Positions 1 through 18,836 of a DNA stretch of 18,836 nt are shown one piece after another. Numbering within the stretch: position 1 is the stretch's first letter; every line of letters begins with the position of its first letter. The position numbers and the translations under genes were made by a program. The notes under the pieces were generated by a model, which searched no databases, was not told the origin of the DNA, and was given only the letters and a program-made list of their open reading frames with translations. The stretch is from NCBI GenBank assembly GCA_029856365.1, contig JAHQWW010000075.1, positions 1 through 18,836 on the forward strand, read 5' to 3'. Source of the DNA: Candidatus Hodarchaeota archaeon (GTDB lineage: Archaea > Asgardarchaeota > Heimdallarchaeia > Hodarchaeales > Hodarchaeaceae).

Positions 1-180
1 GATAGTCACCATATTCAATTTAATGTGGTGACTGCAGATACTCTACGGCAGGCCCAGACGAATCCTGAAAGGTATCGTGATTTAATAGTTCGTGTTGCTG
101 GTTATAGCGATTATTTTGTTGATCTGATACCCGAATTACAAGATGAAATCATTAGAAGAACCGAACATGGGAGTTTTTAA
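1..180 (+). CDS. Glycyl-radical enzyme (PFL superfamily), C-terminal fragment; resembles trans-4-hydroxy-L-proline dehydratase HypD-like enzymes (5' partial)
   Basis: Not in the ORF track. Frame 1 translates to [59 protein letters not shown], containing QFNV and the glycyl-radical loop RVAGY. The subfamily call is tentative because the active-site region is outside the window. Confidence 0.93.
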
Positions 181-181
181 T

Positions 182-655
182 TCACTGGTTCTTTTTGAAA
201 GTGAGTTTCATCTCTGTATCCACAGGGATAAAACCACCTTTTTCATATACACTCTTCCCCACTTCTGTAGAGTGTAAACTAATAGAAGTGATACCTTCTT
301 TTTTTAGAAAATCAATGATTTCTTCCAGTATTTTCGATGCGATACCTTTCTTCCGCCATTTAGTAAGTGTAAACATATTCATTATGTAAGCTTCTTTTCC
401 AGAATCATTTCTTGGTGAGGGAGGTTTTTGAAAAAACACCAATCCGCTAGTAGCTACTATTTCACCATCATTATCCGCGACCCATGATAAAAACTCTTTT
501 CGGGGGATGAAGCGATTAAAATAGTGTTTACAGGCTATTTGAAAAGATTTTATTTCTTCTTTTCCCTTTAATAGTCCCATCTCTTCAAATAAAGCAATTC
601 TAAAGCGTACCAACGAATTTAAATCGTCTAGGCTCGCTCGTCGAATATGGATCAT
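182..655 (-). CDS. GNAT-family N-acetyltransferase
   Basis: Has N-terminal IRRASLDDL, acetyl-CoA motif A (YIMNMFTLTKWRKKGIASKIL) and C-terminal LHSTEVGKSVYEKGGF. Start moved from 685 to the ATG at 655, which follows an AAGGAG RBS-like motif and removes the overlap with the DinB gene. Confidence 0.92.
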   Translation of the reverse strand: MIHIRRASLDDLNSLVRFRIALFEEMGLLKGKEEIKSFQIACKHYFNRFIPRKEFLSWVADNDGEIVATSGLVFFQKPPSPRNDSGKEAYIMNMFTLTKWRKKGIASKILEEIIDFLKKEGITSISLHSTEVGKSVYEKGGFIPVDTEMKLTFKKNQ

Positions 656-671
656 CTCAATTCTCCTTAGT

Positions 672-1187
672 TTAAGACCTATCAACTTCTTGATTATCTA
701 ATTCATTAAAATAGTAGAGATAATCAGCATCAATTCTCTCTTTTTCCAACTTTTTTAGACAGTAATTAAGTTGCCCTCGATGGTACACAGTGTGCAAGAC
801 ATATTGGAGATAGTAATCATCTAAATTTATGGTGAAAGAGGAATCATTTATCCTTTGAATAGTTATTGTCCTATTCATATCTTGTTGGAAAGCCTTAGCA
901 ATTTCTTTGTCTCTAAGTTCCCAATGCTTTAATAATTCTTTAATTGTCATAGATTTGATATGATTTACTATTTCTTCTGGAGAACTTGAATTACTTGTGA
1001 TTCTTCTAAGACATGATTCTATTGCTAATATTATGTGCTCTACTTTTCTTCTTACACTTTCTAAAATTGGGCCTAGGTCTAGTGAAAATTCTTTTTTAGA
1101 GAAGTTCTCTAATTGTTTTCTAGTTTCATTTCCTGCCCATAGATGATAATTTCCAAGATCTGCGATGCCCATTTCTAATACACTCAA
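672..1187 (-). CDS. DinB/YfiT-family four-helix-bundle protein
   Basis: Has N-terminal YHLWAG, central His (VEHII) and C-terminal LHTVYHRGQL, giving the His triad typical of DinB. TTG start. Confidence 0.85.
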   Translation of the reverse strand: MSVLEMGIADLGNYHLWAGNETRKQLENFSKKEFSLDLGPILESVRRKVEHIILAIESCLRRITSNSSSPEEIVNHIKSMTIKELLKHWELRDKEIAKAFQQDMNRTITIQRINDSSFTINLDDYYLQYVLHTVYHRGQLNYCLKKLEKERIDADYLYYFNELDNQEVDRS

Positions 1188-1376
1188 ATTTAATTTTAGT
1201 TTTTGACGAATTTTAGAATTTTTAATTTTTCCTTATTAGGTAAATTTCGAGCGTTTTTTAAGTTTTTGACATTATTCTTTTAGAAATCAGACTCTATTTA
1301 ATGAATAGTGGTGATCTCTCATTCTTTTGCCCATATAGAAGTTTTTTTAAATAGAAAAACATCTGGAGAAACTTAA

Positions 1377-2417
1377 ATGATAAAAATCCCACAAAAAACC
1401 CTTCATTGGCTCCTCGAGGGCAATAATCCTCCAGTGAGAAATTTAACAAAAGAATATCTACAGAATAACAAACCAACGAAAGCTGAATTGGCACAAGTAA
1501 ATAATTATCTCCCCATTAAGACTATTCTCTCTTTATTAAAAACAGATGGTACTTGGACTGATCCAAAGAACCCCTATAAGAAATATACAGGAAATTACTG
1601 GCAGTTAATTTTTCTCTGTGATTTAAACGCTAATGGATCATCAGAACAAATCCAATTAGCATCTGAACATATTTTCTCCTATCAATTACCCGATGGTGGA
1701 TTTCCTCATAAAATAGGATTTAAAAAGCCATTGATATGTTTAACAGCGAATATTCTTCGCTCACTTATCTATTTTGGATATCAAAATGATAAACGTGTCC
1801 AAAAAGGGATCGATATGATTACACAACATGTTATTGAGCATCAGAGTGTAGTTTGCATTGATCCAATCTTTACATTGTTACCTGATTGTCAGATGGCCCT
1901 TACAAAAGTACTTGCTATGTATTCTTACTTAAATAAGAAAGATCATTCTTCAGATATTCAGCGAGTAATGAAAATCATTACAGAAAGAATTGCTGAAAAT
2001 AAAGTCTTTAGGTATGTCCCTACTGGAGCTAAAGAGTATTATAGCGCAATAAAAGGCAAAAAAACATCTGAAATTCGTCAAATTAAGACTCGAATGTTAA
2101 CACAAACCGATAAGCTGAAGAGAACTGTTGCTAAAAGCAGTTGGAAGAAATTTGGTTTTCCTCATTCTTATACTTCTGACGCTCTTGAAACTCTTTATTG
2201 GTTGGCAAAAACCAATTCTCAAAAACGTCCTGAGTTTGAAGAAGCTGTCAATCTGGTAATTAATCGTATGGATCCTTCAGGATATTGGATAAATGAAAAT
2301 AAATTCCGAAATCCGATGTTGGTTGAAATTGAACCAAAGAAATCACCCTCTAAATGGTTAACATTCAGAGCTTGCTTCGTATTGAATAAATTCAGTGAGT
2401 TAAAATTCAAATCATAG
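1377..2417 (+). CDS. Prenyltransferase/squalene-cyclase-like (alpha/alpha)-toroid protein, function unknown
   Basis: Has repeated QW-like motifs (LKTDGTW, QLPDGGF, MDPSGYW), N-terminal WLLEGNNPPVR, FGFPHSYTSDALE and C-terminal PSKWLTFRA. Confidence 0.7.
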   Translation: MIKIPQKTLHWLLEGNNPPVRNLTKEYLQNNKPTKAELAQVNNYLPIKTILSLLKTDGTWTDPKNPYKKYTGNYWQLIFLCDLNANGSSEQIQLASEHIFSYQLPDGGFPHKIGFKKPLICLTANILRSLIYFGYQNDKRVQKGIDMITQHVIEHQSVVCIDPIFTLLPDCQMALTKVLAMYSYLNKKDHSSDIQRVMKIITERIAENKVFRYVPTGAKEYYSAIKGKKTSEIRQIKTRMLTQTDKLKRTVAKSSWKKFGFPHSYTSDALETLYWLAKTNSQKRPEFEEAVNLVINRMDPSGYWINENKFRNPMLVEIEPKKSPSKWLTFRACFVLNKFSELKFKS

Positions 2418-2443
2418 GAAGTTATTTATTCTTAAATTTCTAT

Positions 2444-3637
2444 TTAAAACCCCTTAAGAGGAGATAAGAATGATCCTGCAGATCTCTCTGTTAGCGGAAT
2501 CATAGAGTCACATTCTTTTATCAAAACATCTTTGTCAGTAATAAACCTTCCAAGCTTTTTTGCTTGAAGCTTTATTGCACTTATTACATTATCTTCAATT
2601 TCCTCAAATAAAAACAGCTTTATTAACGATTCATTTTCTTGAAAAACGTCCCAAACTCCAATTATTCTCCCATTGAGCAAGATTGATGATGTAGCATTAC
2701 CAGAGCGATCAAAAACATAATTATAACGCTTAATCTTGATATATCTTTCACGTTCTTTGTATCCCATGACATACGGGTCTAGAGCTGGCATTAAATTAAC
2801 TATTTGCCTTTTAGAACTCCGAACAGTGTCTATCAGATCTTTATCAGAGGCTAACATAAGAAGATCCTTATTAAGATCTAGAATTTTGACTTGTAAGATT
2901 TGATCTTGAATGTGATTCAATGCCTTTGTTACCTTTGTTCTGTTTAATCCAGTCCACCATATTGCATCCTTTTCAGAAATAGGGCCAAATGTGGCTAAAT
3001 AGTATTGAACTAGCTGATTTATAGCTTGTTGCTCACTAAATTGAGAGAAATCTATATTAGGGAAAAACGCATTGAAAAGAGAATATTTTCGAGGTCTAGT
3101 TCTTATTAATAATGCTTGGTCACACATCAAATACAGAATGAACGAGATAGATTTAAAAGTCGTTTGTAGAGCATTTTTTATCTCTGAAGCACTCATTTCT
3201 TCTTTATTATCTTTTAAGATACTAAGAATTGATTCTGAAAGCACTTTATATCTATCAAAAGAGATCCCTCGGAATTCCAAAGCTTTTATAGATTGTGTTT
3301 CAACCATTTTGCTTGTTGCCACATAAACTACTGGGATTATTTCTTTAGGGAAAATAAAGAGAGTTCTTCGGATACAGCGAATTTTCCCAAGATTTTTTTT
3401 GATGAACAGCTCTTCATCTAGATCCTTTTTTATGAAATTAGGCATTCGAGCAAACAAAGATATATATGGAACCTTGGTACTGGTGGCGTGTAACCCCCCA
3501 ATCTCCTTTACTATTTTCCCAATATCTTTAGTTCTTGTTTCATCTACTAAATGCTGTTTGTATAAGATTAACCGATTGATTTCATTTAATGTAATATCTA
3601 TCATGTTATCATCAATTAGAATCTCTTTACTTTTCAC
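2444..3637 (-). CDS. AlkZ/YcaQ-like (HTH_42) winged-helix DNA glycosylase family protein
   Basis: Has GGLHAT...PYISLFARM, RCIRRTLFI, YLATFGPISEKDAIWWTGL, LMPALDPYVMGYKER and ILLNGRIIGVW, matching the family layout. GTG start, exact position uncertain (an ATG about 11 codons downstream is an alternative). Confidence 0.88.
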   Translation of the reverse strand: MKSKEILIDDNMIDITLNEINRLILYKQHLVDETRTKDIGKIVKEIGGLHATSTKVPYISLFARMPNFIKKDLDEELFIKKNLGKIRCIRRTLFIFPKEIIPVVYVATSKMVETQSIKALEFRGISFDRYKVLSESILSILKDNKEEMSASEIKNALQTTFKSISFILYLMCDQALLIRTRPRKYSLFNAFFPNIDFSQFSEQQAINQLVQYYLATFGPISEKDAIWWTGLNRTKVTKALNHIQDQILQVKILDLNKDLLMLASDKDLIDTVRSSKRQIVNLMPALDPYVMGYKERERYIKIKRYNYVFDRSGNATSSILLNGRIIGVWDVFQENESLIKLFLFEEIEDNVISAIKLQAKKLGRFITDKDVLIKECDSMIPLTERSAGSFLSPLKGF

Positions 3638-3684
3638 ATCTCAATACAATTAAGAACTCAAAAGTCATAATCTTTGTTTGTTAT

Positions 3685-4641
3685 TCAAATATTCGATATT
3701 TTTACATTTCTTTGCTTCAAAAAATCCATTACTTCCTTCATCGTGGGCAATGACATTGCTCCTTGTTTCATAATTTTTAACGCTGACACGGCATTGGCAA
3801 AATAAGGGATATCGTACATATCTAGCTTCAAAAGAAGTCCCGTGATCATACCCGCAGCAAAGGCATCACCTGCACCTGTTGTATCTACAACAGGAACTTT
3901 AAACGAAGGTGCAAAAAAGCTCTCTTCTTTAGTTATGATTCTTGAACCTTGTTCTCCTGAAGTTAATCCTATCATGTCAGGGCCAATTTCAAAAATGGCT
4001 TCTAGCGCTTTTTCTCCTTTTTTTCCTGTAATAAATTCCGCTTCACTCAAAGATGGGATAAAAATATCTGTCTTTTCTAATACTTCAAGTAAATGTTCTC
4101 GGGGATCTAGGTGATGCCACAGATCATCTCGGAGATTTGGATCACACGCAACTAATACATTGTTTTGCTTTGCAATATGAATGGTCTTTTTTATTGCAGA
4201 TCTGGCTGGTTCATCCGCCATCGAGACAGTTCCATACATCAAAACTTTACTAGACTTTATATACTCTGTATTAATTTCTGACTCTTTTAACATAATATCT
4301 GCACATGGGGATCGATAGAATGAAAAAGAAGGCTTTTTTGATTCATCTAGACCTACAAACGCTAGAGCAGTCTTATATTCATTAGTTATAATTATTTGAC
4401 TGACATCGACCCCTTCTTTCTCTAAAGCTTCAAGTAAGAAGCGTCCGAAAAAGTCATCTCCGACTTTTGTAATTAAACCAGCTTCATGACCTAATTTTCT
4501 TACTCCAACAATAAAATTAGCTGGAGCTCCTCCAGCAAACCGCTTAAAAGTGGTTTGATCCTCCATACGTGTTCCAGGATTATCCGCGATTAGATCAATC
4601 AAGAGTTCGCCTATAGCTATTACATCAAGCATGGTAGACAT
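3685..4641 (-). CDS. PfkB/ribokinase-family carbohydrate kinase (fructokinase-like)
   Basis: Has GELLID, AGGAPAN, KVGDDFFG, DPNLR and the PfkB signature VDTTGAGDAFAAG. Start is likely the ATG at 4641 or 4632 rather than 4716, since family similarity begins at MLDVIAIGE. Confidence 0.95.
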   Translation of the reverse strand: MSTMLDVIAIGELLIDLIADNPGTRMEDQTTFKRFAGGAPANFIVGVRKLGHEAGLITKVGDDFFGRFLLEALEKEGVDVSQIIITNEYKTALAFVGLDESKKPSFSFYRSPCADIMLKESEINTEYIKSSKVLMYGTVSMADEPARSAIKKTIHIAKQNNVLVACDPNLRDDLWHHLDPREHLLEVLEKTDIFIPSLSEAEFITGKKGEKALEAIFEIGPDMIGLTSGEQGSRIITKEESFFAPSFKVPVVDTTGAGDAFAAGMITGLLLKLDMYDIPYFANAVSALKIMKQGAMSLPTMKEVMDFLKQRNVKISNI

Positions 4642-4870
4642 AACCAATCCTACTGACAAGACATACCATCGTGATAGCATTACTTTAATCTTTATTATTT
4701 CCGATGGAAAATTCATTTATAATTTATAATAGTGATTATTTGTAATCTGAAATAAGTACAGATATACAGGTGAACAAATAACCAAACAATTAAGAAAATT
4801 AGATGACTTTGATCTTAATGTTTATGAGTCAGGAATGAAGATTTTAATCATAAAAAAAGACAATATTGGT

Positions 4871-5014
4871 ATGAAATCAAAGAGGAAAATCACAGAACCA
4901 AGAAATGGGACAGAATCAGAAGGTAGAAGGGAAATCCCTCCAATAAATGTCCATCTACTCGTTCTAACGCTCATCCTGTCCCTCATCTTTTTGCTAGCAA
5001 TATTAGTCTTTTGA
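4871..5014 (+). pseudogene. Truncated, diverged duplicate of the 5' end of the 5260..6402 gene (47-aa ORF with one hydrophobic helix)
   Basis: Translates to MKSKRKITEPRNGTESEGRREIPPINVHLLVLTLILSLIFLLAILVF*, which aligns without gaps to (W)ESMKKSTEPKNKTQTEGRTEITPIIVHPLALALILSLIFSLGGLF. DNA similarity is visible, e.g. cgctcatcctgtccctcatcttt vs cgctcattctgtcactcatcttt. Confidence 0.8.
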
Positions 5015-5259
5015 GAGGAATTTGTATTTTCATTTCCGAGAAATTATGATTATCACAACCAATGGGGAAAACACTGGAACCTTAACACAAGGATTGAAGC
5101 CTTCCTGACCAAACAGTTGCAAAAAGACTGATTCTCATTCCTGCTGATGTTGTAGAGAATTCTTTTAATCGTTCTTTGACATTTTTGGTAGAAAAACTAC
5201 TTTTTCTAAGATAATCTTTTATGTGCGTATGAAGCGTTAGTAGAAGTAAGATCTTCTCT

Positions 5260-6402
5260 ATGGGTTGGACATGGGAATCAATGAAGAAAAGTACTGAACC
5301 AAAAAATAAGACACAAACTGAAGGAAGAACGGAAATCACTCCAATTATTGTTCATCCACTCGCTCTAGCGCTCATTCTGTCACTCATCTTTTCGCTAGGG
5401 GGATTATTTTTGATGGTAACAGTCCCTGAGGAATTAAATCGCTTTTTAGAAAATTACATCGCTGATCCGTGGTATGCTCCAAGTGAGGAAGGCGTCCAAG
5501 TACGGGCACAATATGAGTCAGTGGTAGCTTTTCTTAGACCTATAGCATACCTTTCGTTCTGGTTAATGATTATAACGATAATAGTTGGAGTACTCATTAA
5601 GCGGTACAAGCTGAGCTTTTTAGGATCCTTGACCTTCTACCTTCCGATTTTTGGTCAATTTGCTACAATGATGGGCCCTTTCTTTATTTTTGCAGGCATT
5701 GGGGTGTCACGAACTCTTTGGGTACCTATTCTGGATCACGTCCCCAAACTCTTGAATCTAGGCGCCATATTTTACTTCCCACTGGTGGTGATATTTTTTC
5801 TGATTGATCTTCTTCTTGCACTCTTAATATTTTCGCTGCGGGAACCTCTTTTACAACCACTACTAGGAGAAGAAATGGCAATATCAATTACGCATTTGTT
5901 GAATTTTATGATTGTTTTTTTTATTGCTGGAATAGGTATTTTCATTTTCACGTTTGCAGTGGTGACGTGGTTATATGGACGATTTCAAGGTCGGAAGGTC
6001 ATAGATTTTTGGATTTATCGCTATTCAAGGCATCCCCAATATATGGGGCTGATTATTTGGAACTATGGCCTGTTAATGTTATCAACAATTTCTCATATTG
6101 GCCTCTTCCCCCCCACGTTCCCTTTCCTTGTATTGTCTTTGGTAATCATTGGGATGGCTCTGAATGAAGAGAATACGATGATTCGACAACATACTGAGGA
6201 ATATATTACGTGGCGAGAGCGAACACCATTCCTATTTCCTTTACCCCGAAGAATCAGATCATTTATTACGTATCCTATGAGAAAGTTGATAAAGAAGGAG
6301 TGGCCGGAAAGTAACAAAGATATTATCCAGGTCTTACTGATTTATGGTTCTATTGTGGTATTGATGTCGGTTCCCCTTGTGAATTATGTCTTCTGGCAAT
6401 GA
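5260..6402 (+). CDS. Multi-pass membrane protein, isoprenylcysteine carboxyl methyltransferase / PEMT / DUF1295 superfamily
   Basis: Has many hydrophobic segments, the signature IYRYSRHPQYMG, then NEE and EEYITWRERTPFLFP. Start may be 5260 or 5281. Confidence 0.85.
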   Translation: MGWTWESMKKSTEPKNKTQTEGRTEITPIIVHPLALALILSLIFSLGGLFLMVTVPEELNRFLENYIADPWYAPSEEGVQVRAQYESVVAFLRPIAYLSFWLMIITIIVGVLIKRYKLSFLGSLTFYLPIFGQFATMMGPFFIFAGIGVSRTLWVPILDHVPKLLNLGAIFYFPLVVIFFLIDLLLALLIFSLREPLLQPLLGEEMAISITHLLNFMIVFFIAGIGIFIFTFAVVTWLYGRFQGRKVIDFWIYRYSRHPQYMGLIIWNYGLLMLSTISHIGLFPPTFPFLVLSLVIIGMALNEENTMIRQHTEEYITWRERTPFLFPLPRRIRSFITYPMRKLIKKEWPESNKDIIQVLLIYGSIVVLMSVPLVNYVFWQ

Positions 6403-6441
6403 AAACTTACTTCATCTTTCTTCTCTTCGACAATCGCAAAC

Positions 6442-9400
6442 TTATACCGATTTTCCCCGAGGCCATAGATCTTGGATGATTTCTTTCAGAACTCCAACGA
6501 GGCGACTGTCCGTTGTAATAATCAATTGAACCCCAATATCGTCGGAACCGATCGCAGCTTCTTCCGTACCATCTCTTGCAAAAGCATAGATTTCCACGTT
6601 TTCATAGTGTTTTAATTGGACATTTCCTAGCTCTTGAGTAATCTTTCTAGCCGTTTCCTGGGAATCAACATTAGTAAGAATCTGTATTCGTCGTCGAGTT
6701 CCTGCTTGTTCAAGTACATCCCAAGGAATCATCGATAGTTTAGGCACCATTATTTGAATGGTACTCTTCGTCCGACTTAACATTGCTTGGAGTGTCTGCA
6801 TGACCCTATCAACAGGTTGCAAATAAGTCTCCTCTACACTGGCTATTGGCACTTCCATTGCTTGTTTCTGGATCTCTGAGATTAGTGACATTAATTTTTT
6901 ACTTTTAGAAAGTCCTGATCCAAGTTTAGCGGGAATTTTACCAATAATTTGTGAAAGATCACTTGAAATTGTGTCCTGTGTTTGTGTTGCTTTTTTATCA
7001 ACTTCTGAAGTAAGATTCAACACATCATACTCTAATACTTTAGAGACATTGTCACTTTTTGATTCGAAGAAGGAGTATGTTTCTGTAAGTATAGAATCAA
7101 TGTCATCATAATATGAACTACTTCCTTCAGTAATTATATTCTGAATCTCTGTGATGCTTTCTTGGATGTTATTGGAAATGACTTCCACATTATCGGAAAT
7201 TATTTGACCAAAAGTGTTTGAAAAACTAGTAAGATTTTGATCTACTTCTTTGAATAATATCTGATGACGATCTGTAGCAGTATTTTTCTCTATTTCCAAA
7301 GCATTTATACTATTAGTGACTCTGTCATCCAAGAAATCACTGCTTTGGTTTAGAAGTGTATCATGACGGCTATTCAAAGTCGAAATAAAATTCTGAGCAG
7401 TTGCTACAAATGCTTCAAGAGAAGCTTGAAATTCTTGATATAGACGGTTCACTTTTTGACTTAATTGAATCTTACCAGAGTTTATATCAGTTTCTATTTT
7501 TATAATAATATCTTGGACATTAGTACTAAATATTTCGATGGCTTGATGAATCTCCTTCTCTATTTGAGCCCTTTTATGTGGTATTTTTTTATCTAATTCA
7601 GTAATTTTTGATTTTAAACTGTTTATTTCGCTTTGTAATCCAGTATAAATTTTTTCAATTTGATCTTTGAACTCTCCTCTCTCAGAGGAAGCTTGTTGTT
7701 CGACTGTCTTGAGATGATTTAAGCTAGAGGACTTTAAGTTGTCAATAATTTCTTTAGAATTGCTGTATTGCCCTTCAATATCTTTTAGCAATTGAGTTGA
7801 AATTTCTTCAATCCTAGTTGGAAGAGAACGAATATCTTGCAGCTTATCATTTGCGTTCGCTAGAGTCTTCGAGGATATTTCCTTTATCGACTCATTAGTG
7901 GTTTGAGTAATAGTTTTTATAGAATCTTGAAGTTTTTCATTTATTTCCTTAAGAGTTGAAATGATTACCGTACCATTATCCTCCAATTTAGTTGGAATTT
8001 CTTGAAATTTCTCTTTTTGAGATAAATTCAACACCTGGATATTCGTATCTATAATCGTCTTTAAGTCGTCTTGAGCTTCTTCTAGGGCTTTAATCAAATT
8101 CTGTAAGTTACTACTTGTCGATTCTAGGAAAGTATTTGATTGTTTATCCAGTTCTTCATTAAGTTGAGAAAGAATGGAACTTCCCTTTTGAGAAGCCAAT
8201 TTCCAATGAGTAGACATAATTTCTTTGAAATTAGAAAGATCAGATTGAGATTTGAGCCTATTAAAGGTTTTGTCTATCTCAGAAATTATAGATTCGTTAA
8301 TTACTTCCGCGATTCGTGCTCCTCCAGATTCACTTGCAGATTGAAAAGCAAGTTGAAGGTTCTGGATAAAATTTTCCACTTCAACATTAAGAATTGCTTC
8401 AAGTTCTCTTGGCGCTTGAGCTGTCTGATCTAATTGCACAATAGAGTTATTTAGCTTGTTAAATTCATTGATTAGACTTTGTTTAAGACTTTCATCAAGA
8501 GAGGTAGAAATCGTCGAGAGAAGAAGCCCTAGCTGGTCAATAAGATTCGCTTTTCGTGTGTTATATCTCTCTTTTATTCTGTCTGAAAATTCCGTGATAT
8601 TCTTCAGTGCCAGTTCATATGATGAATTGATAGATTTTGTAAGGTCTTCCTTGATAGTGTCCATTAAACGTTGGATCTCTAAATTTTGAGTATTCAAACT
8701 TGAGTTTATTGTTTCTGCAAAGGATTCACTAGATGCGTTAAGATTATGAATTTGGTCATCAATAAGTCTTTCTGTCCGTTTTTGAGCGCTATCAAATTCT
8801 TTCATTGCTGAGGTTACAATTTTTTCGATATCTTGAAATCCTCCTTTCCCTAGACTAACTCTCTTACTTAATCTTTCAGTGACCTCGGAATTAATTTCAG
8901 TCAAACGATTTCTTATCTTGTTAAGTTCTGCCTTTACAGCCCGATCGAAGGTGTTAAAATCATCAGTATGCCGTGCTTGGTATTCTTCAAGTTGAGTGGG
9001 AATATTCCGACTGAGTTCTAAGGTTGATTTCTCAATTTTTTCAGAGAGAGCTTTTAGTCGCTCCTTTGAAGTAATGATTTGTTCTTTCTGTTCGTTTTCT
9101 GCCTTTTCACTGACTTCTGTGACATCCACGGCAAGATTAGCAATATCTTGATCAAAAGTTTCGGAAATTGTTTGATTGCCAGCTTCTATATTCATTTTAA
9201 ATTGGTCAAGAATCCTTGAAATCTCTGCCTGAGTATTCATCGAGATTTGGTTTAAATCCTCTGACACACTACTAATGACATTAAAATTCTGAGTGATTTC
9301 TTCTGTTCTTGCACCTACATTTTCTACAAGCATTGACTGCATTTGACCAAGTATCATATTTGCTGAAGTCCCAAAGGAAGAGAATTCCTCATTCGCCACA

Positions 9401-11043
9401 TTTCGAAGATATTGTAAAGATTCAGAAAGTTTACTGCTTCTTTCGGAAAGTAATTCCTTCATTTTCAAGTTTAATTCGTCTACACTCGTTGTCATATCAA
9501 CTAGATTTAATTCAGAATCCTCATCGAAATTCTTTTCAATATCAGAGACCTGTTGTATCATTTCCAAGAAAGAATTGGAAGTTTGCTCTATTAATGGTTG
9601 AATCTGCTGTTCTAGATCTTGTATTACTTTATTAATTGTCTTTGAGCCTTCTTGAATGATAGTAGTTCTATTGCCTTCTAAAAGGGAAAAAATGTCTGTT
9701 TCTAATTTTAGCAACTCTTCTATTCCATTACTGTATTGGGCTTGAATAAATATTTCTAATTTTTCAAATAACTGAGAAATATCGATACTTAATTTTTCTT
9801 GGAAAGAAGATACATGTGCGGTTACATCAGTGTTTATACCCATCAGTCCTTCGGTCTGAATCGATTCAAATCCCTCTGATCCTTTAACTAATTCCTCTTT
9901 GGTATTCATTAATACTTCAGTTAAAGCTGATGTTATGTTTTCAGAGTTTAGTTTCTCTTTTGCTTCATCAAACTTATTTGTTGTTTCGATAATTGACTGT
10001 AACATTTCTGTCAAGTTTTTCCAAAGATTTTCATTAATCTTATTCGCTGAATCAATGACCGAAAAAGAACTCTTGGATGTTCGCTCACTGAAATCTTGAA
10101 CCATCTCGTGGATAGATTTTAACGATTCTTCCCCTAAATCAATGAGATTCATCTGGATTTTTTCAATTTGTTGGTTAATAATGGTCAACTTATCAGAAAC
10201 TTTCTTAGTTATTTCTTCTCCGATTGAATTAAGATCATCCTGACTTGAGAGTTTATTTTGCTCAATATTTCTGCTTGTTTGTTCGTTGATAGTTGAAAGG
10301 GTTGAATTTAAGTTCTCTGTAGTGTTTGTAACTTGATGCTGAAGTGTTTGTATTGATTGTCTCATTTGGGAAAAAAGACTATTCAAACTTTCGATTCTTT
10401 CTGAATAGATTTCAGTTATTCTTTCAAGGTGTTGTTTTCTTTCTTCTATCCGAGACTCCTTGATATTTTTCAGATTTACTTCAAGCATAGCAATATTTTT
10501 ATGGACTTCTGTTTCTAAATTGCTAGAAAATTCGGTGATCACATTCTCTAATTTTTTAGAATTCACTTGATTTTGATTTGAAACTTGATTTTTGATCTGT
10601 CGCAGAATTTCAGTAGTTTTGGTCTTTATTTGCTCCATATAAGCCCGAATATGAGATTGAAATTCTTTTTCAGATTTTGAGACTAATTCTGGCCCCTTTT
10701 GAATATCATTTACTATATTAATTAATTCTTTTTGCCCTTCTTCCCATTTATTTTTGATTTCTTCCTTAATTTGGTTTAATTCACTTTCTACTTGCCGATC
10801 AATTTCACTAGTTACTGCGATTGCTGGAGCTAATGCGATGTACTGAGGCACTTTCCCTGGGATCACTCTTATGAATTTTTTCTTTTCTAATCCATCTAAA
10901 GCACTTTGAATAGCTTCAAGAGCTAGATCACTAGCTAATATCATAATTTCTTCGACTGTTCGCACTGATTTAGAAACAATAATAGTGTAGACTTGGCCCT
11001 CTTCTGTTGTGAACCCTAATTGATTATACAAGTCTGTCGACAT
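6442..11043 (-). CDS. 1533-aa protein: N-terminal TrmB-like winged helix-turn-helix, about 1,320-aa alpha-helical/coiled-coil rod, C-terminal TrmB effector/PLD-like domain
   Basis: aa ~1-75 (LGFTTEEGQVYTII...IQSALDGLEKKKFIRVIPGKVPQYIALAP) fits the TrmB wHTH pattern. The middle is E/Q/S/K/I/L-rich with very few Pro and no Cys. aa ~1410-1533 (LQAMLSRTKSTIQIMVP...IQILTNVD...YAFARDGTEEAAIG...LIITTDSRLVGVLKEIIQDLW) fits a PLD-like fold without HxK. No Walker A/B motif is seen. Confidence 0.8.
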   Translation of the reverse strand: MSTDLYNQLGFTTEEGQVYTIIVSKSVRTVEEIMILASDLALEAIQSALDGLEKKKFIRVIPGKVPQYIALAPAIAVTSEIDRQVESELNQIKEEIKNKWEEGQKELINIVNDIQKGPELVSKSEKEFQSHIRAYMEQIKTKTTEILRQIKNQVSNQNQVNSKKLENVITEFSSNLETEVHKNIAMLEVNLKNIKESRIEERKQHLERITEIYSERIESLNSLFSQMRQSIQTLQHQVTNTTENLNSTLSTINEQTSRNIEQNKLSSQDDLNSIGEEITKKVSDKLTIINQQIEKIQMNLIDLGEESLKSIHEMVQDFSERTSKSSFSVIDSANKINENLWKNLTEMLQSIIETTNKFDEAKEKLNSENITSALTEVLMNTKEELVKGSEGFESIQTEGLMGINTDVTAHVSSFQEKLSIDISQLFEKLEIFIQAQYSNGIEELLKLETDIFSLLEGNRTTIIQEGSKTINKVIQDLEQQIQPLIEQTSNSFLEMIQQVSDIEKNFDEDSELNLVDMTTSVDELNLKMKELLSERSSKLSESLQYLRNVANEEFSSFGTSANMILGQMQSMLVENVGARTEEITQNFNVISSVSEDLNQISMNTQAEISRILDQFKMNIEAGNQTISETFDQDIANLAVDVTEVSEKAENEQKEQIITSKERLKALSEKIEKSTLELSRNIPTQLEEYQARHTDDFNTFDRAVKAELNKIRNRLTEINSEVTERLSKRVSLGKGGFQDIEKIVTSAMKEFDSAQKRTERLIDDQIHNLNASSESFAETINSSLNTQNLEIQRLMDTIKEDLTKSINSSYELALKNITEFSDRIKERYNTRKANLIDQLGLLLSTISTSLDESLKQSLINEFNKLNNSIVQLDQTAQAPRELEAILNVEVENFIQNLQLAFQSASESGGARIAEVINESIISEIDKTFNRLKSQSDLSNFKEIMSTHWKLASQKGSSILSQLNEELDKQSNTFLESTSSNLQNLIKALEEAQDDLKTIIDTNIQVLNLSQKEKFQEIPTKLEDNGTVIISTLKEINEKLQDSIKTITQTTNESIKEISSKTLANANDKLQDIRSLPTRIEEISTQLLKDIEGQYSNSKEIIDNLKSSSLNHLKTVEQQASSERGEFKDQIEKIYTGLQSEINSLKSKITELDKKIPHKRAQIEKEIHQAIEIFSTNVQDIIIKIETDINSGKIQLSQKVNRLYQEFQASLEAFVATAQNFISTLNSRHDTLLNQSSDFLDDRVTNSINALEIEKNTATDRHQILFKEVDQNLTSFSNTFGQIISDNVEVISNNIQESITEIQNIITEGSSSYYDDIDSILTETYSFFESKSDNVSKVLEYDVLNLTSEVDKKATQTQDTISSDLSQIIGKIPAKLGSGLSKSKKLMSLISEIQKQAMEVPIASVEETYLQPVDRVMQTLQAMLSRTKSTIQIMVPKLSMIPWDVLEQAGTRRRIQILTNVDSQETARKITQELGNVQLKHYENVEIYAFARDGTEEAAIGSDDIGVQLIITTDSRLVGVLKEIIQDLWPRGKSV

Positions 11044-11189
11044 AATTATCCCTTACTTTAGTCTCATTCTGTGTCAATCAAACCCAAAGATGGAAAATTT
11101 TATTTGTGATGTCAAAATTAAAATAATCTCAAATAGTTTTACGCGAACTTGTAAATTTATAATAACTCTGAAATTAATTATTTTGAATT
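11044..11189. promoter_or_regulatory. Divergent intergenic promoter region with a TATA-like box on the + strand
   Basis: 146-bp AT-rich gap between head-to-head genes. TTTATAAT at 11156-11163 lies about 27 nt upstream of the GTG at 11190, the spacing expected for a leaderless archaeal transcript. Confidence 0.5.
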
Positions 11190-12647
11190 GTGATAAAGCT
11201 GCAGAACGATAAACTTGCTGAAAGTATGATTCAACAACGGCAATATCAAAAGATAATACTTTCTAAACTTAAAGAAAACTTCCTACAGGGTCATAACACG
11301 GTCGTTGAGGTAGATACAGGATTGGGGAAACGTGTTCTAGCATTTCTTCTAATAAAAGATGTCCTCTCGGAACAAAGAGTTCTTCTACTCCTACACTCTA
11401 CAATTAGTTACTCTGAAACAATTCATTACTTTAAAGTGGAGTACGGTGGTTTTCGTGAATCAGAATTTCAAGCTTTTTCTTCTAAAACTTCAGGGTGGCT
11501 TAGATACAAAATTCTTGATGAAGCACGAGTGGTTGCTGCAACCCCCCAAACATTTGCAAATGCCTTTAATAAACTCCCCCAATCTAAAAAGCCAAAATTT
11601 AATGTAGTAATAATTAACGAAATAGACAAAATTGTTCGACGTCATGGAGATTCCCGTTTATTGATTTTTCCTTACAATAATCTCATTCCACATTTTGCAT
11701 ATTCTGGTGCATGGATTGTAGGAATGACGGGAACAATTCGAGACTCTCACATTCTTTATAATCAATCAAAAGATCAAATTGAGATTCAACCTGAAATTGT
11801 TTCACTTGATAAACGTATTCCTGAACTTCACATCATTCGGATGGATACACTTCTAGCACAAACTGATATTAAAAACTATATCCAGAATACTTATATTCAG
11901 CGATATCATGTGAAGGCGAGTCCTGAATTACAAACAATTTTGGATTTGATAGATCAGGGCATTAAAGACTTACGACAATTAATTATTGATGAGACTATGG
12001 AACAACATCCGACTCTTCTTGAAACAATTCCCTCGTCTCAAGTCGCACTAGTTTCTGGAATGTTAGAATCAGGTAACACTCAGAAGTATCAAGGCTTATT
12101 ACTAATACGAAAATATTGTACTGCAATGCAACCAAAAAAATTTCGAAAATTCCTCTTTCGCCTAAAGAAATTCGGGATAACCAAGGATCTCATTTATGAT
12201 TTACCTGAATATAACGCTAAGATTGACAAAGTACTCGAGCTTATTAAAAAACAACCCCAGAATTCTAAAACAGTTGTTTTATGTTCATTTCTTGATACAG
12301 CTCAAAAGCTCGAAGATGAAATTCAACAAATTGGGGTCACAACTTTTCAAGTGACTGGACAAGTTCGAAATAAGATCTCTGTACTTAACAAGTTTAAGGA
12401 AATAGAGGAAAAAGCCGTACTTGTGATGACTGCTGTGGGTGAAAGAGATATTGACCTCCCACAGGCTAATCTATTAATCGTCTATGACGTTGTCAATACT
12501 GTAAAAACGATGTATCAAAGGTTTAAAAGGACTCGTGGTGGTTTAGTCTTATGTTTATGTTATAAAAAAACCTTTGAAGAGCAAAAAGTCAATCGATTGC
12601 TTCAAGAGATTAGTAAACGCTATCCATGGTCTTCAATAATAGAATGA
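11190..12647 (+). CDS. SF2 helicase-like protein, Hef/Mph1/FANCM-like, with divergent motifs and no ERCC4 nuclease domain
   Basis: Has Q-motif RQYQ, motif I VDTGLGKR, Ib VVAATPQTFAN, II IINEID, III GMTGT, IV VVLCSFLDTA, V VMTAVGERDIDLP and VI YQRFKRTRGG, with a helical insert between the RecA lobes. Confidence 0.85.
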   Translation: MIKLQNDKLAESMIQQRQYQKIILSKLKENFLQGHNTVVEVDTGLGKRVLAFLLIKDVLSEQRVLLLLHSTISYSETIHYFKVEYGGFRESEFQAFSSKTSGWLRYKILDEARVVAATPQTFANAFNKLPQSKKPKFNVVIINEIDKIVRRHGDSRLLIFPYNNLIPHFAYSGAWIVGMTGTIRDSHILYNQSKDQIEIQPEIVSLDKRIPELHIIRMDTLLAQTDIKNYIQNTYIQRYHVKASPELQTILDLIDQGIKDLRQLIIDETMEQHPTLLETIPSSQVALVSGMLESGNTQKYQGLLLIRKYCTAMQPKKFRKFLFRLKKFGITKDLIYDLPEYNAKIDKVLELIKKQPQNSKTVVLCSFLDTAQKLEDEIQQIGVTTFQVTGQVRNKISVLNKFKEIEEKAVLVMTAVGERDIDLPQANLLIVYDVVNTVKTMYQRFKRTRGGLVLCLCYKKTFEEQKVNRLLQEISKRYPWSSIIE

Positions 12648-12689
12648 AATCTTTCAATGCACCATGTTCGTTTTTTCAAAATTAATTCA

Positions 12690-13385
12690 CTAAAGAAAGG
12701 GGATAAATCCTCCACCAAAAAAGCCAACAACTAATAAGCAACCTATTAATGAAATCCATATTTTTGGATCCCATGCGAGTACTTTTGCTCCATCTAAAAC
12801 GCCTATGGGAAGAAGATTAAACACCCCTAGAAAAACATTCAACCAAACACCAACAATTCCAATAAAATTTAATGCTAAGCCTAATGAAATCATGCTGCTG
12901 TCAAGAATTAACAAAACACCAACTCCTTGGAGGGAAAGGAATAATCCTGCAAGTATAAAATTAGTTATTGGCCCAGAAGCAGAAACTCTACCACGAATTC
13001 CCTGAGAAGCAGTGGCTTCACCCCACCAAAACACAGCTCCTGTTGCAAGAATCGGAAAACCAATTATAACACTAATTAATGTTAGAAATAGTGCTTCCTT
13101 ACTAAGCCTGTAGTAAGCTCTTGCACCATACTTGATGGCAATAAATTTGTGAGATAATTCATGGGCAAAAAAACTTACGCCTAAGACGAACAGATAGATC
13201 AGCAGTTCATCTGGTATTTTTCCTTCTTGAATGACATCGCCAAGAGTTCCTGTTAGGTAGAGAATTACGAAACTTGTAATTAACCACCCAATTCCTAGTT
13301 CAGATATTTCTTGAACAGATAGATGGAGTCTATCAAGAATAGTTTTTTTAGTGAAATCACTTTTCCAATCAGGTTTTTGATCCAT
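12690..13385 (-). CDS. Site-2 protease (peptidase M50) intramembrane zinc metalloprotease
   Basis: Has HELSH (HExxH) within a hydrophobic segment, SASGPITN and FNLLPIGVLDG (NxxPxxxLDG). Confidence 0.95.
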   Translation of the reverse strand: MDQKPDWKSDFTKKTILDRLHLSVQEISELGIGWLITSFVILYLTGTLGDVIQEGKIPDELLIYLFVLGVSFFAHELSHKFIAIKYGARAYYRLSKEALFLTLISVIIGFPILATGAVFWWGEATASQGIRGRVSASGPITNFILAGLFLSLQGVGVLLILDSSMISLGLALNFIGIVGVWLNVFLGVFNLLPIGVLDGAKVLAWDPKIWISLIGCLLVVGFFGGGFIPFL

Positions 13386-13802
13386 TCATACCTCCTCCTT
13401 GCACGTATGACTACCAGGAAGATAATGTGATCCACAGAGGATCTGTCCACATCTCGCGCAATAAAATGGTTTATGAATCTTTTTCCCACAAGTGCTGCAA
13501 AAAGCAACTTCTGGAATTTCTGGTCTTTTCTGTACCTTATCAGGGTACACCTTTACCACTTTAAAGTTCGTTAAATCAGGGGAAGCCTCATACTCAGCTT
13601 GATATCCTTTTATCCTTTCTGGTGAAAATAAGAGAGCAATAAAAATCATTCCAGTAATTGTAGTAATTATTCCTAGCGTTAACAGTCTAAATGAAGGATG
13701 AATATAGAATATAAGGCTTGAAAGAAAAAAACCAAAACTAAGGACTGTTATAACACTAAATCCGATCAAATATTTTGAGTTGAGGTTCATATTAGTCATC
13801 AT
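13386..13802 (-). CDS. Membrane-anchored AN1-type zinc-finger protein
   Basis: Two N-terminal hydrophobic helices, then CSTCGKKIHKPFYCARCGQILCGSHYLPGSHTC (C-x2-C...C-x2-C-x4-C-x2-H-x5-H-x-C, the AN1 spacing). Confidence 0.88.
   Translation of the reverse strand: MMTNMNLNSKYLIGFSVITVLSFGFFLSSLIFYIHPSFRLLTLGIITTITGMIFIALLFSPERIKGYQAEYEASPDLTNFKVVKVYPDKVQKRPEIPEVAFCSTCGKKIHKPFYCARCGQILCGSHYLPGSHTCKEEV
13390..13400 (-). promoter_or_regulatory. Strong Shine-Dalgarno sequence for the S2P gene, embedded in the 3' end of the AN1 gene
   Basis: The minus strand reads AAGGAGGAGGTA-TGA-ATG: SD motif, stop codon of the upstream gene, then the next start codon immediately. Confidence 0.7.
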
Positions 13803-14463
13803 CTAAGTTTGGAAATAAGTCTAAGATTTCTGTCAATGATGAAATAACAATTATTTCAGGAAGAATTTGTTCAAAATCTTCTTTATGAAACATTCCCTTT
13901 CTTCCAATAAAATAGATATCATTCATTTTTGCTCTTTTAAGGTCATGTAATGAATCTCCAATAAAAATAATCTCGGAGCTAGAATAATTATATTTCGATT
14001 TAACAAATTTAAAATGATCCGTACCCTTTTCAAACCCAGGCCTCCACCCAAGTATATCATCGACCATATTCAATCCATGTTTCTTAAGATAATTAGTTAT
14101 TATTGATTCAATTGTACCACTAGATATTCCTAATTTATATCCACGTCGTTTCAGTTCTCGAAGTACCACGCAGGAATCTGCAAATAGCTGTTGTTCAAAG
14201 ATTCGCTCAAGTTTCATTTTTTCGAATTCAGTTACTATTTTACCATTATCTTTTTTAGGAGCTATAATTTCCATTTGTTGAATAAATGGAAGTCCTGTAG
14301 TTTCACGATAGCTTTTCTGAGCTTCTTCGGTAGAAAATCCATAGGAATTTGTTAGAAGATATACTGCATTATTCTCTAAAAATGGCATTGAATCTACAAT
14401 GGTTCCATCGAAATCGAACATGATATACTGAGTTTTACAAAGATTTACCAATTTTTTTTTCAT
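13792..14463 (-). CDS. HAD-superfamily hydrolase (phosphoglycolate-phosphatase-like)
   Basis: Has motif I FDFDGTIVDS, motif II GISSG, Lys in FEKG and motif IV FIGDSLHD. Confidence 0.93.
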   Translation of the reverse strand: MKKKLVNLCKTQYIMFDFDGTIVDSMPFLENNAVYLLTNSYGFSTEEAQKSYRETTGLPFIQQMEIIAPKKDNGKIVTEFEKMKLERIFEQQLFADSCVVLRELKRRGYKLGISSGTIESIITNYLKKHGLNMVDDILGWRPGFEKGTDHFKFVKSKYNYSSSEIIFIGDSLHDLKRAKMNDIYFIGRKGMFHKEDFEQILPEIIVISSLTEILDLFPNLDDD

Positions 14464-14692
14464 TATTATTTGATACCTCTGTGTTATATTCCTTTGATCA
14501 GATCTTCTGTTTCTTAGTCCTGTAAAATAATAATTGATGACTTGAGCTAATCAATCAAAGTTATTATCAAATGTTTTTAAAAGTCTCTTACTAAGGTGTT
14601 CAAAAATATCTATATTAGAAATAGAAAAAGTGTGCTATCAAATCAAACCTTGAAAAAGATATATTTTTCCTTCTCTTTGGAGCAAAGTTAAA

Positions 14693-16336
14693 TTGCGCAC
14701 ATATGATACACTTTTTATGTGGTTTATGTTATTAATAGTGTTCATATTGGGTTATTTTATTTTGCTGTCTTTTTTACTACCCGAAGGATATGTAAATCAC
14801 GAATATCTCCTAATCGGGTTATTCATAACGTTACTGGGTTTAGTTATCCTGTTTATCTACTTCTTGGTGTTGAGGCGTCAACGAAAACAGATTCAAATAC
14901 ATCTTAATACTTTTCGAGAAACAGGAATGCAGGTCTTCATCGAGAAATATGAGAAACTTCTTTATAGCCGAGATATAGGTGATCTTCCTAAAATCACGCG
15001 TTTAATCTTTAATTTTAATTGTCTCGCAATTATCCAGCCTAAGAATATTGAAGAATTACAAAGAATTATTAGTCTTTGCGAACAATACAAGATCCCTCTT
15101 ATTCCCCGTGGAGCAGGAACTAGTGGATATGGTGGAGTATTACCTATAAAGAACGGTATTATCGTTATCTTAACCTTTTTTGATAAGATAATAGCTATAA
15201 ATGAGGAAAAAAATACCGTTGAAGCTGAATGTGGAGTAACTTGGGAACATCTTCGCAAATTCCTTGAATCTAAAGGGAAGACTTTGAAATCATATCCTTC
15301 ATCTGCACCATCGTCAACAATTGGTGGGTGGGTTACTCAAGGTGGATACGGTGTGGGGTCAGCCAAATTTGGCAGTGTTAATGAAAGTATTCTGAATGTC
15401 ACCGTTATTGGAAAAGAGGGAAGGGAATTCCACCTTGAAGATCCTGAGGTATTTATAGGCAGCTGCGGAAGCTTGGGTATTCTTTGGAAAGTTACTTTAA
15501 AAATAAAGAATTTTTCAAAAATAATTCACAAAATTGTCTCGTCTTCTCACCAAAACCAGTTAGTGAAAGCAATTCCAGTCTATCAAGAATTATTACCTTT
15601 TTTTTTACGTTATGATGATTATCATAATCTAATTTGGAAGAATCCTAAATCTAATCTATCACCTTGGGGGTCTCAAAATTACACTGGAGGAGTTATTTCC
15701 ATGAGTTTTCTGGAGGAAGACTGGAATCAAAGAAAATTCAATGAAATTAAAAATGAATTTCAACTCGTTGTACAATCAAATGACCTAGGCAAGACATTTT
15801 GGAATGATCGATTTGATACAATTAAACTAAAACGTAGAGGACCATTCCTCATAATAGCAGAGGTGCTTATACCAACTATTCACTTAGAGAAGATTATTGA
15901 GATACTATCTAAACGTTACGAACGAGGATCATATGCATTAGAACTTGTGTCTACATCGGATGACCTATGTGTTATGTTTGTGTGGTTCCCCGTTGATATG
16001 AGACGTTGGTCATTACCTTTTATTGGCTCTTTTACTTATGCTTATCATTGGTTAAGGTTTATCGATATTATATATTCCACTCGTCACTGGAAAGGCAGAC
16101 CTTACAGTAGTGGTCTTTGGCTTAGTGCATATTCAGGATTAATTTTCGGACAAAAATTTCATGAAATGAAACGACTAAAAAAGAAAATTGATCCTTATGG
16201 TATATTTAACCCAGGAAAAGTATGGGGTACTCGAATCCCTCGTTTCTTCCCTATTATTCCGTTATCTCTTATCTTTTGGTTTGGTATCCCTCTCGTAAGT
16301 GTTCTTTATCGAATTACCCCCAAGAAATATAGATAG
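14693..16336 (+). CDS. FAD-linked oxidoreductase (FAD_binding_4 / GlcD-VAO fold) with N-terminal membrane helices
   Basis: Has IPRGAGTSGYGG, YPSSAPSSTIGGW, FIGSCGSLGILWKVTLK and C-terminal LKKKIDPYGIFNPGK. Two hydrophobic helices in aa 1-60. TTG start, uncertain. Confidence 0.9.
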   Translation: MRTYDTLFMWFMLLIVFILGYFILLSFLLPEGYVNHEYLLIGLFITLLGLVILFIYFLVLRRQRKQIQIHLNTFRETGMQVFIEKYEKLLYSRDIGDLPKITRLIFNFNCLAIIQPKNIEELQRIISLCEQYKIPLIPRGAGTSGYGGVLPIKNGIIVILTFFDKIIAINEEKNTVEAECGVTWEHLRKFLESKGKTLKSYPSSAPSSTIGGWVTQGGYGVGSAKFGSVNESILNVTVIGKEGREFHLEDPEVFIGSCGSLGILWKVTLKIKNFSKIIHKIVSSSHQNQLVKAIPVYQELLPFFLRYDDYHNLIWKNPKSNLSPWGSQNYTGGVISMSFLEEDWNQRKFNEIKNEFQLVVQSNDLGKTFWNDRFDTIKLKRRGPFLIIAEVLIPTIHLEKIIEILSKRYERGSYALELVSTSDDLCVMFVWFPVDMRRWSLPFIGSFTYAYHWLRFIDIIYSTRHWKGRPYSSGLWLSAYSGLIFGQKFHEMKRLKKKIDPYGIFNPGKVWGTRIPRFFPIIPLSLIFWFGIPLVSVLYRITPKKYR

Positions 16337-16349
16337 GCCTTTGTAATTC

Positions 16350-17129: not shown

Positions 17130-17323
17130 AAAAATGCGCTCATCACTGTTTTTTTGTGGTTAAATATGATTTTCGTCACGATTATAAAAGAATGATAAAT
17201 CACAATAATCCCCATCTGTCTTACTCTTAAATATTTATTTTAAAATAAGAACCCTTTTTAATAAAGAGAGAGTGAAAAAAGAAAATTTTAATACTTATAA
17301 TATGGTTAAGTAATTAATGGATT

Positions 17324-17330
17324 AGGTGAT
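17324..17330 (+). promoter_or_regulatory. Archaeal-type Shine-Dalgarno AGGTGAT upstream of the KaiC-like gene
   Basis: AGGTGAT ends 6 nt before the TTG at 17337, which supports that start. Confidence 0.6.
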
Positions 17331-17336
17331 CAGAAT

Positions 17337-18116: not shown

Positions 18117-18165
18117 AATGTGGAGAATAGCTGAAAGAATCTGATTTTTTCTTAATTATCAGGTT

Positions 18166-18834: not shown

Positions 18835-18836
18835 TC

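Follow-up and report, generated by a model that had tools for sequence, protein, structure and literature searches.

A TrmB-headed rod protein of a Hodarchaeal archaeon that probably folds back as a giant antiparallel helical hairpin

Background

Proteins of the TrmB/TrmBL2 family are about 260–340 residues (aa) long and carry an N-terminal TrmB-type winged helix-turn-helix (wHTH), one short linker or dimerisation helix, and a C-terminal domain behind this helix. In the solved TrmB and TrmBL2 structures, the wHTH and the C-domain of one chain form a unit. Long fold-back rods are known from other families. In SMC, Rad50 and MukB, a long antiparallel coiled coil unites the N- and C-terminal parts of the chain in one head and bears a special element at its apex, and the cytoplasmic domain of the T. 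maritima chemoreceptor (PDB 2ch7) is a long two-helix hairpin with a highly conserved, Gly-containing tip. Straight helices with an 11-residue-type repeat are found in the antifreeze protein Maxi (PDB 4ke2) and in apolipoproteins A-I and A-IV. Here we describe a protein with likenesses to all of these, P0001 (1,533 aa), which is encoded on an 18,836-nucleotide stretch of Candidatus Hodarchaeota archaeon (assembly GCA_029856365.1, contig JAHQWW010000075.1, positions 1 to 18,836; hereafter the window). Between its two terminal domains lies a rod of about 1,325 residues of predicted helix, which is interrupted near its midpoint by the motif KRVSLGKGGF. Very probably, the rod is an intramolecular antiparallel helical hairpin with this GKxGF break at its apex, a stalk of about 98 nm and a TrmB-like head.

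By its ends, P0001 belongs to the TrmB/TrmBL2 family, with the linker helix probably replaced by a giant hairpin: it has the N-terminal TrmB wHTH, and its C-domain probably corresponds to the domain that follows the linker helix, whereas some 1,325 helical residues stand in the place of the short helix. The SMC and Rad50 proteins would share with it the overall plan, and the model of its central region superposes on arm fragments of Smc, Rad50 and MukB. In contrast to these, however, its apex is a five-residue turn without a hinge domain or a CxxC zinc hook, and its repeat is hendecad-like and not heptad; Pfam searches of the full protein returned TrmB and helical-repeat families only, and neither an ABC ATPase head nor Walker motifs. 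The chemoreceptor domain is the best structural match, but the stalk of P0001 is four times longer, has a period of 3.64 instead of 3.5 residues, and carries a TrmB-type head instead of a transmembrane sensor. Unlike the apolipoproteins, the rod is strongly acidic and has neither proline-punctuated 22-mers nor a detectable tandem repeat. No description of a TrmB-headed fold-back rod was found in literature searches.

Results

Position and conservation of the apex motif

A first-pass annotation of the window, made from its letters, had pointed to KRVSLGKGGF (within 8830–8870) as a Gly-rich break at the midpoint of the rod, and had proposed that the rod folds back there. The motif occupies aa 727–736 (8836–8865), inside that interval. 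The midpoint of aa 738 given for a rod of aa 76–1400 is correct, and the conserved anchors described below place it at about 735. G732, G734 and G735 form the sole four-residue window with at least three Gly in the whole 1,533-aa protein, and this unique site lies 3–6 residues from the rod midpoint; in a rod of 1,325 aa, a single site would come to lie this close to the middle (±6 residues) by chance in about 1% of cases.

The break is conserved, as the fold-back proposal demanded. In nine orthologs (1,533–1,538 aa, 44–79% identical), K727, R728, V729, S730, L731, G732, K733, G735 and F736 are all invariant, while position 734 may be G, A or R. The surrounding aa 681–760 are the most conserved stretch of the rod (conservation 0.84–0.94 over aa 681–740). 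The motif also keeps its central position when the length of the protein changes. It reads KRVSLGKSGF at residues 322–327 of paralogs of 711–719 aa (rod midpoint ~328) and KRLSVGKSGL at residue 512 of a 1,091-aa relative (rod midpoint ~517); in P0014, a relative of the same length as P0001 and 27% identical to it, GKGGF is found at residue 730, the rod midpoint. Between the long form and the short paralog, the tip module around the motif, which is better conserved than any other part of the rod, is 44% identical and the other parts 28–29%.

The tip had also been described as basic. R724, K727, R728 and K733 do give a charge of +4 in 10 residues, but a more basic patch is found elsewhere in the protein. 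Because the most basic window sits at the midpoint in only about half of the sequences, the basic tip is to be regarded as a modest feature.

Paired, mirror-placed length changes in the two arms

The eight full-length orthologs of P0001 (1,534–1,538 aa, 44–79% identical to it) occur in metagenome-assembled genomes of the Heimdall/Hod group of Asgard archaea. Among the long orthologs, down to 44% identity, there are three rod indels only, of 1 or 2 residues each, and even P0014, whose sequence the fragment P0017 continues, can be aligned over its whole length with no large indel. The second class, of 711–719 aa, coexists with the long form in three genomes (G255, G240 and G261); in the genome from which the window comes (83.6% complete), no such paralog was found. 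A homolog search with the 1,091-aa form yielded no further members of that length class. A 'partial' record of 1,032 aa (P0011) is not a natural truncation, because the long-form gene of G240 is broken by a scaffold gap of 100 N (L019 10348–10447).

The two arms of the rod were measured separately. The N arm was taken from PG..P in the wing of the wHTH to the G of the apex motif, and the C arm from there to the RTKST of the C-domain. The 1,091-aa form is without PG..P, and a conserved [Y/F]IALAP-type motif at aa 67–68 served as its N anchor. The N and C arms are 669–670 and 691–694 residues long in the long class (670 and 692 in P0001, the latter from G732 to RTKST), and 261 and 283 in the short class. 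The C arm exceeds the N arm by 21–25 residues in the long class and by 22 in the short class, and the offset stays at 21–25 in every length class. The arms of the 1,091-aa form measure 445 and 470, as compared with 664 and 692 in the long class between the same anchors.

By the anchor motifs, therefore, exactly 409 residues are gone from each arm of the short class, and 219 and 222 residues were lost from the two arms of the 1,091-aa form. The places of the losses are mirrored as well. When a long-class profile was compared with nine short-class proteins, the match fell into three abutting collinear blocks, covering long-class residues 1–~210, ~611–842 and ~1254–1536. If i and j denote two facing residues, the boundaries of the missing segments give i + j of 211 + 1253 = 1464 on the outer side and 610 + 843 = 1453 on the inner side. 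The 1,091-aa form is without aa 307–536; its second gap, net 224 residues, lies within aa 916–1229, a range that includes the mirror image (924–1153) of the first. It had been suggested that homolog indels, if the rod folds back, should occur in symmetric pairs, and the large ones are indeed paired (409/409 and 219/222, with i + j of ~1453–1464). Antiparallel pairing of the arms is strongly supported, because two independent length changes have removed equal, mirror-placed pieces, which is expected only if the arms pair in this way.

Predicted structure of the central region

An AlphaFold2 prediction for aa 540–926, made with 14 sequences, has a mean predicted local distance difference test score (pLDDT) of 81.2. 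The predicted helices cover aa 541–727, 733–848, 850–875 and 877–925, with kinks at 849 and 876, and the sole central helix break is at aa 728–732, where the pLDDT of the turn is 75–80. As had been anticipated for the middle of the rod, the model appears to be an antiparallel hairpin that turns at aa 728–732.

The best Foldseek matches of this model are the chemoreceptor 2ch7 (E 7e-4), the Rad50 coiled coil, the dynein stalk and the MukB elbow, all of which are antiparallel hairpins. Structural alignment with VIA-align gave a Z of 13.3 for 2ch7, with 303/309 residues aligned over model residues 34–346, and 3.1 Å over 196/196 residues for the Maxi hairpin 4ke2 (model 70–307), the lowest root-mean-square deviation; for the Smc coiled coil 5xg2, 237/237 residues were aligned (model 66–313). 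All these alignments are centred on model residue ~190, or aa ~729, so that i + j is ~1455–1460, which agrees with the deletion boundaries and with the conservation-mirror peak given below. A low-confidence model of a full-length 714-aa paralog, read here for its secondary structure only, likewise consists, along the rod, of two giant helices (78–316 and 322–547) that are broken only at RVSLG.

Periodicity and mirror statistics of the rod

The hydrophobic period of the rod is 3.64 residues (power 544; shuffled sequences reach 125 at most), and none of the 100-residue windows shows more than negligible power at 3.5. The period is 3.62–3.68 throughout the N arm and 3.6–3.75 in the C arm except at aa 876–975. 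The repeat is hendecad-like, not heptad. Since it is of the hendecad type, nearly straight, non-supercoiled helices are to be expected, and the same property explains why the rod is matched by apolipoproteins: Pfam Apolipoprotein (PF01442) reaches 95.8 bits (cut-off 90) over eight stretches, as periodicity and composition alone would give, and a PDB profile search matches apolipoprotein A-IV.

In the long class, the correlation of the conservation profile with its own mirror image peaks at i + j = 1460–1466 (r 0.59–0.75, with the central 160 residues excluded). The pairs of helix breakers to which the first-pass annotation had drawn attention are indeed placed symmetrically (G558 + G907 = 1465, P118 + P1371 = 1489), but mirrored Gly and Pro are not significant on their own (P = 0.085): of the 18 breakers in the N arm, 7 are matched by one at the mirror position of the C arm (±4 residues), where 3.9 ± 1.8 are expected. 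G566 and G907 are invariant and G558 is not, and AlphaFold2 keeps the G558 and G907 sites helical.

Discussion

Weighing the fold-back against other readings

The fold-back of the rod proposed at first pass thus stands as far as the hairpin is concerned, which is supported by the conservation of the break, the paired indels and the AlphaFold2 model; the symmetry of the arms is expected alike from pairing within one chain and from pairing between two chains. Several observations weigh against a fold-back within one chain. The topology of the central model was read from the structures superposed on it, not from its coordinates or a contact map, and when AlphaFold2 is given a monomeric fragment with two long helices, it tends to make a hairpin of them. 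The model of the full-length 714-aa paralog (15-sequence alignment) is poor, with a pLDDT of 51.6 and a predicted template modelling score (pTM) of 0.24, and the sequences are too few for residue coevolution. The small indels of 1–2 residues are uncompensated within the same sequences. When the period and amplitude of the local hydrophobic repeat were compared with their mirror images, no peak appeared at i + j ~1460 (r 0.22–0.24), and the conservation mirror of the short class is weak, with peaks at 590–596 and 670–676, as compared with the expected 645–672.

To these must be added that a constant i + j, matched arm deletions and mirrored conservation are predicted just as well by an intermolecular antiparallel dimer, in which two extended chains lie head to tail with the N arm of one on the C arm of the other. 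Such a dimer would be a rod of ~200 nm, with a composite head at each end (the wHTH of one chain and the C-domain of the other) and GKxGF on the dyad. Extended chains, however, need no conserved five-residue G-x-x-G non-helical turn at their centre, whereas a hairpin does; moreover, AlphaFold2 models a turn there with the pLDDT given above, and the unit that one chain forms in the solved TrmB and TrmBL2 structures also counts against a composite head. The intermolecular dimer is considered unlikely, and we infer that the arms pair within one chain. It is more improbable still that there is no long-range pairing at all, and that the rod is an extended parallel coiled-coil dimer, a stack of short bundles or a row of apolipoprotein-like amphipathic repeats, with the central motif a conserved binding site or a flexible linker only. 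The PF01442 score, the apolipoprotein A-IV match, a period of 3.64, as found in amphipathic helices on lipid surfaces, and the negative outcome of the periodicity-mirror test are in its favour. Against it, equal mirror-placed losses from both arms, twice independently, would be left without a reason; no internal repeats were found in P0001 by self-BLAST, Gly and Pro are few (18 in one arm, 20 in the other), unbroken helices of 187 and 116 residues are predicted, and the net charge of the rod, -74, makes lengthwise binding to an anionic surface unlikely.

The structural likeness to 2ch7 might also be taken to mean that the tip is a diverged signalling tip of a chemoreceptor (methyl-accepting chemotaxis protein, MCP), and the protein a cytoplasmic MCP-like signalling rod. 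GKGGF resembles what we take to be the GRGF of the MCP tip; sequence searches lend this no support. With E values up to 10, no match to PF00015 (MCPsignal) was found for aa 641–830, and a PDB search with the sequence of aa 690–780 brought up no chemoreceptor; by these Pfam and PDB searches, chemoreceptor homology of the tip was rejected. Other generic hairpins match the model equally well, the period is 3.64 and not 3.5, and the ends of the protein are a TrmB wHTH and, probably, a TrmB-type C-domain. Descent from a chemoreceptor is therefore hardly credible, and the caution of the first-pass annotation that the resemblance may be coincidental was well placed: what is shared is the shape.

Proposed architecture

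In the intramolecular hairpin, the N arm would run out from the head and the C arm would return alongside it, with i + j of ~1455–1465. The wHTH would thereby meet the probable TrmB-type domain of the C-terminus, and the two would make up a head like that of ordinary TrmB/TrmBL2 proteins on top of the stalk. With ~650 residues per arm and 0.15 nm per residue, this stalk would measure ~98 nm. In such a protein, the short linker helix of TrmB would have been expanded into a giant hairpin. Two such molecules may dimerise through their heads, as TrmB proteins do, to give a four-helix stalk, and the small basic and hydrophobic loop of the conserved tip module may dock on a partner, be it membrane, DNA or protein. 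The length of the stalk would be under tight selection, and would change only by matched loss or gain of facing segments in both arms.

The TrmB-type head

The evidence for the head differs between its two halves. PF01978 (TrmB) scores 29.8 bits when aa 1–76 are scanned alone, above the cut-off of 25.6, and 23.9 bits, just below it, in the full protein; several orthologs carry PF01978 in precomputed domain lists. The sole PDB sequence matches of the N-terminus are to TrmBL2 (5bqt, 5bpd and 5box), with E of about 1. The C-terminal domain has no direct Pfam match, including to PF11495. The region of aa ~1255–1500, however, matches a canonical 364-aa protein, P0039 (E 1.2e-4), that carries both PF01978 and PF11495 (22.7 bits, cut-off 22.2), and when a profile of the C-domain was compared with the PDB, TrmB structures 3qph and 2f5t were in the top three (E 0.24–0.33). 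The Foldseek matches of the low-confidence short-paralog model are weak; the top one is TrmBL2 5bqt (prob 0.90, E 0.03). The 'TrmB head' of the first-pass annotation may thus be accepted for its N-terminal half, and its C-terminal half is probable.

In the TrmBL2 alignment (E about 1), the recognition helix DLALEAIQSALDGL stands opposite EVPAPRTYDVLRSL. The Arg positions of the helix are not conserved, and the basic PGK wing (KKKFIRVIPGK) is kept. Judging from this alignment, sequence-specific DNA binding may have been altered or lost.

Layout of the gene and its surroundings

The features of the gene, with those of its neighbours, are listed in Table 1.

Table 1. Positions of P0001 features and neighbouring genes in the window
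Feature	Position	Strand	Basis
Whole gene, TrmB-headed rod protein (P0001), 1,533 aa	6442..11043	(-)	Open reading frame list and translation
TrmB-type winged helix-turn-helix, aa 8–73	10825..11022	(-)	Pfam PF01978; TrmBL2 PDB matches
Recognition helix, aa 41–54	10882..10923		TrmBL2 alignment
Rod N arm, predicted outgoing helix, aa ~76–727	8863..10818	(-)	Period 3.62–3.68; AlphaFold2 helix
'Neck' element of N arm, QKGPE, aa 115–118	10690..10701		
N-arm segment missing in 711–719-aa paralogs, aa ~211–610	9214..10413	(-)	Profile-search gap
Gly cluster of N arm, aa 386–402	9838..9888		
Conserved island of N arm, aa 541–587	9283..9423		
Tip module common to long, short and 1,091-aa forms, aa ~611–842	8518..9213	(-)	Profile block 2
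Apex motif KRVSLGKGGF, aa 727–736	8836..8865	(-)	Position, invariance, AlphaFold2 break
Predicted non-helical turn RVSLG, aa 728–732	Within apex motif	(-)	AlphaFold2 models
Rod C arm, predicted returning helix, aa ~733–1400	6844..8847	(-)	AlphaFold2 helices; period; arm length
C-arm segment missing in short paralogs, mirroring aa 211–610, aa ~843–1253	7285..8517	(-)	Profile-search gap
Conserved island of C arm, aa 873–916	8296..8427		
P1075/G1091 of C arm, aa 1075–1091	~7771..7821		
'Neck' element of C arm, aa 1367–1383	6895..6945		
C-terminal globular domain, probably TrmB/TrmBL2-type post-linker-helix domain, aa ~1401–1533	6445..6843	(-)	Transitive match, PDB profile
Divergently transcribed superfamily 2 (SF2) helicase-like gene	11190..12647	(+)	Helicase_C, ResIII
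AlkZ-like DNA glycosylase gene	2444..3637	(-)	

The SF2 helicase-like gene adjoins the long-form gene in the window and in two relatives (75–85% identity), and the AlkZ-like DNA glycosylase gene lies downstream of the long form here and in three relatives. The neighbours of the short paralogs are unrelated: a Na+/H+ antiporter, a beta-lactamase-like protein and a nucleotidyltransferase. Gene context is of little help for the function.

Several TrmB-headed clusters, of 652–872 aa, occur in Asgard archaea according to an Atlas look-up; in the wider Asgard family, the clusters have up to 354 members. When distant rod-TrmB relatives (1,006–1,719 aa) were compared with the long-class profile, the heads alone aligned specifically, and the rod matches were compositional. 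Lys-rich patches near the anchor midpoint were seen in these relatives, as an anecdotal observation. In P0043, a related rod protein of 1,450 aa, the central Lys-rich motif is MQLQDKKTRKKL, and the 766-aa protein P0033 starts precisely at this motif. P0033 is either a C-arm form of half size or the product of a miscalled start.

Possible function

A ruler or a tether is suggested by the strict conservation of length and by the existence of separate length classes with a common tip module. A structural role as tether, spacer or scaffold is favoured over ordinary gene regulation for three reasons: down to 27% identity, the stalk hardly varies in length; paralogs of discrete length, with the same tip module, may be present in one genome; and the length changes are matched removals from both arms. 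If the stalk changes length only by matched facing segments, it may be expected to behave as a fixed-length spacer or tether. A more specific proposal, which must be regarded as doubtful, is that these proteins are fixed-length rulers of Asgard archaea, in which a TrmBL2-type chromatin head on a stalk of ~37, 66 or 98 nm, with the common tip module docked on the membrane or on a cytoskeletal partner, would keep DNA or other cargo at set distances from it. The long form may have, in addition, a mid-arm elbow (aa 386–402 against P1075/G1091) and a docking site (aa 541–587 and 873–916). The architecture makes predictions for the length of the particle, for crosslinks at i + j ~1460, and for a binding partner of the tip, and the length variants are a natural set for the study of ruler function.

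Further features of the rod

Two strongly conserved islands, aa 541–587 and aa 873–916, mirror each other (545 + 916 = 1461, 587 + 873 = 1460). Both are inside the segments present in the long form only, and the AlphaFold2 kinks at aa 849 and 876 (P878) are nearby. The islands may be a long-form-specific docking site or a joint, ~22–28 nm from the tip.

At the midpoint of the N arm is a Gly cluster, aa 386–402 (G388, G391, G399 and G402, of which G399 is invariant). It roughly faces P1075/G1091, which lie close to the middle of the C arm, and the amplitude of the hydrophobic period dips at about aa 371. This cluster could be an elbow, like that of MukB or cohesin.

Near the head, the conserved QKGPE of the N arm and the C-arm sequence IGKIPAKLGSGLSKSKK may be seen as a 'neck'. 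No other 21-aa window of the protein is as basic as that of IGKIPAKLGSGLSKSKK (+5). The positions of the two elements sum to ~1486–1490, and both are conserved in the long and the short classes.

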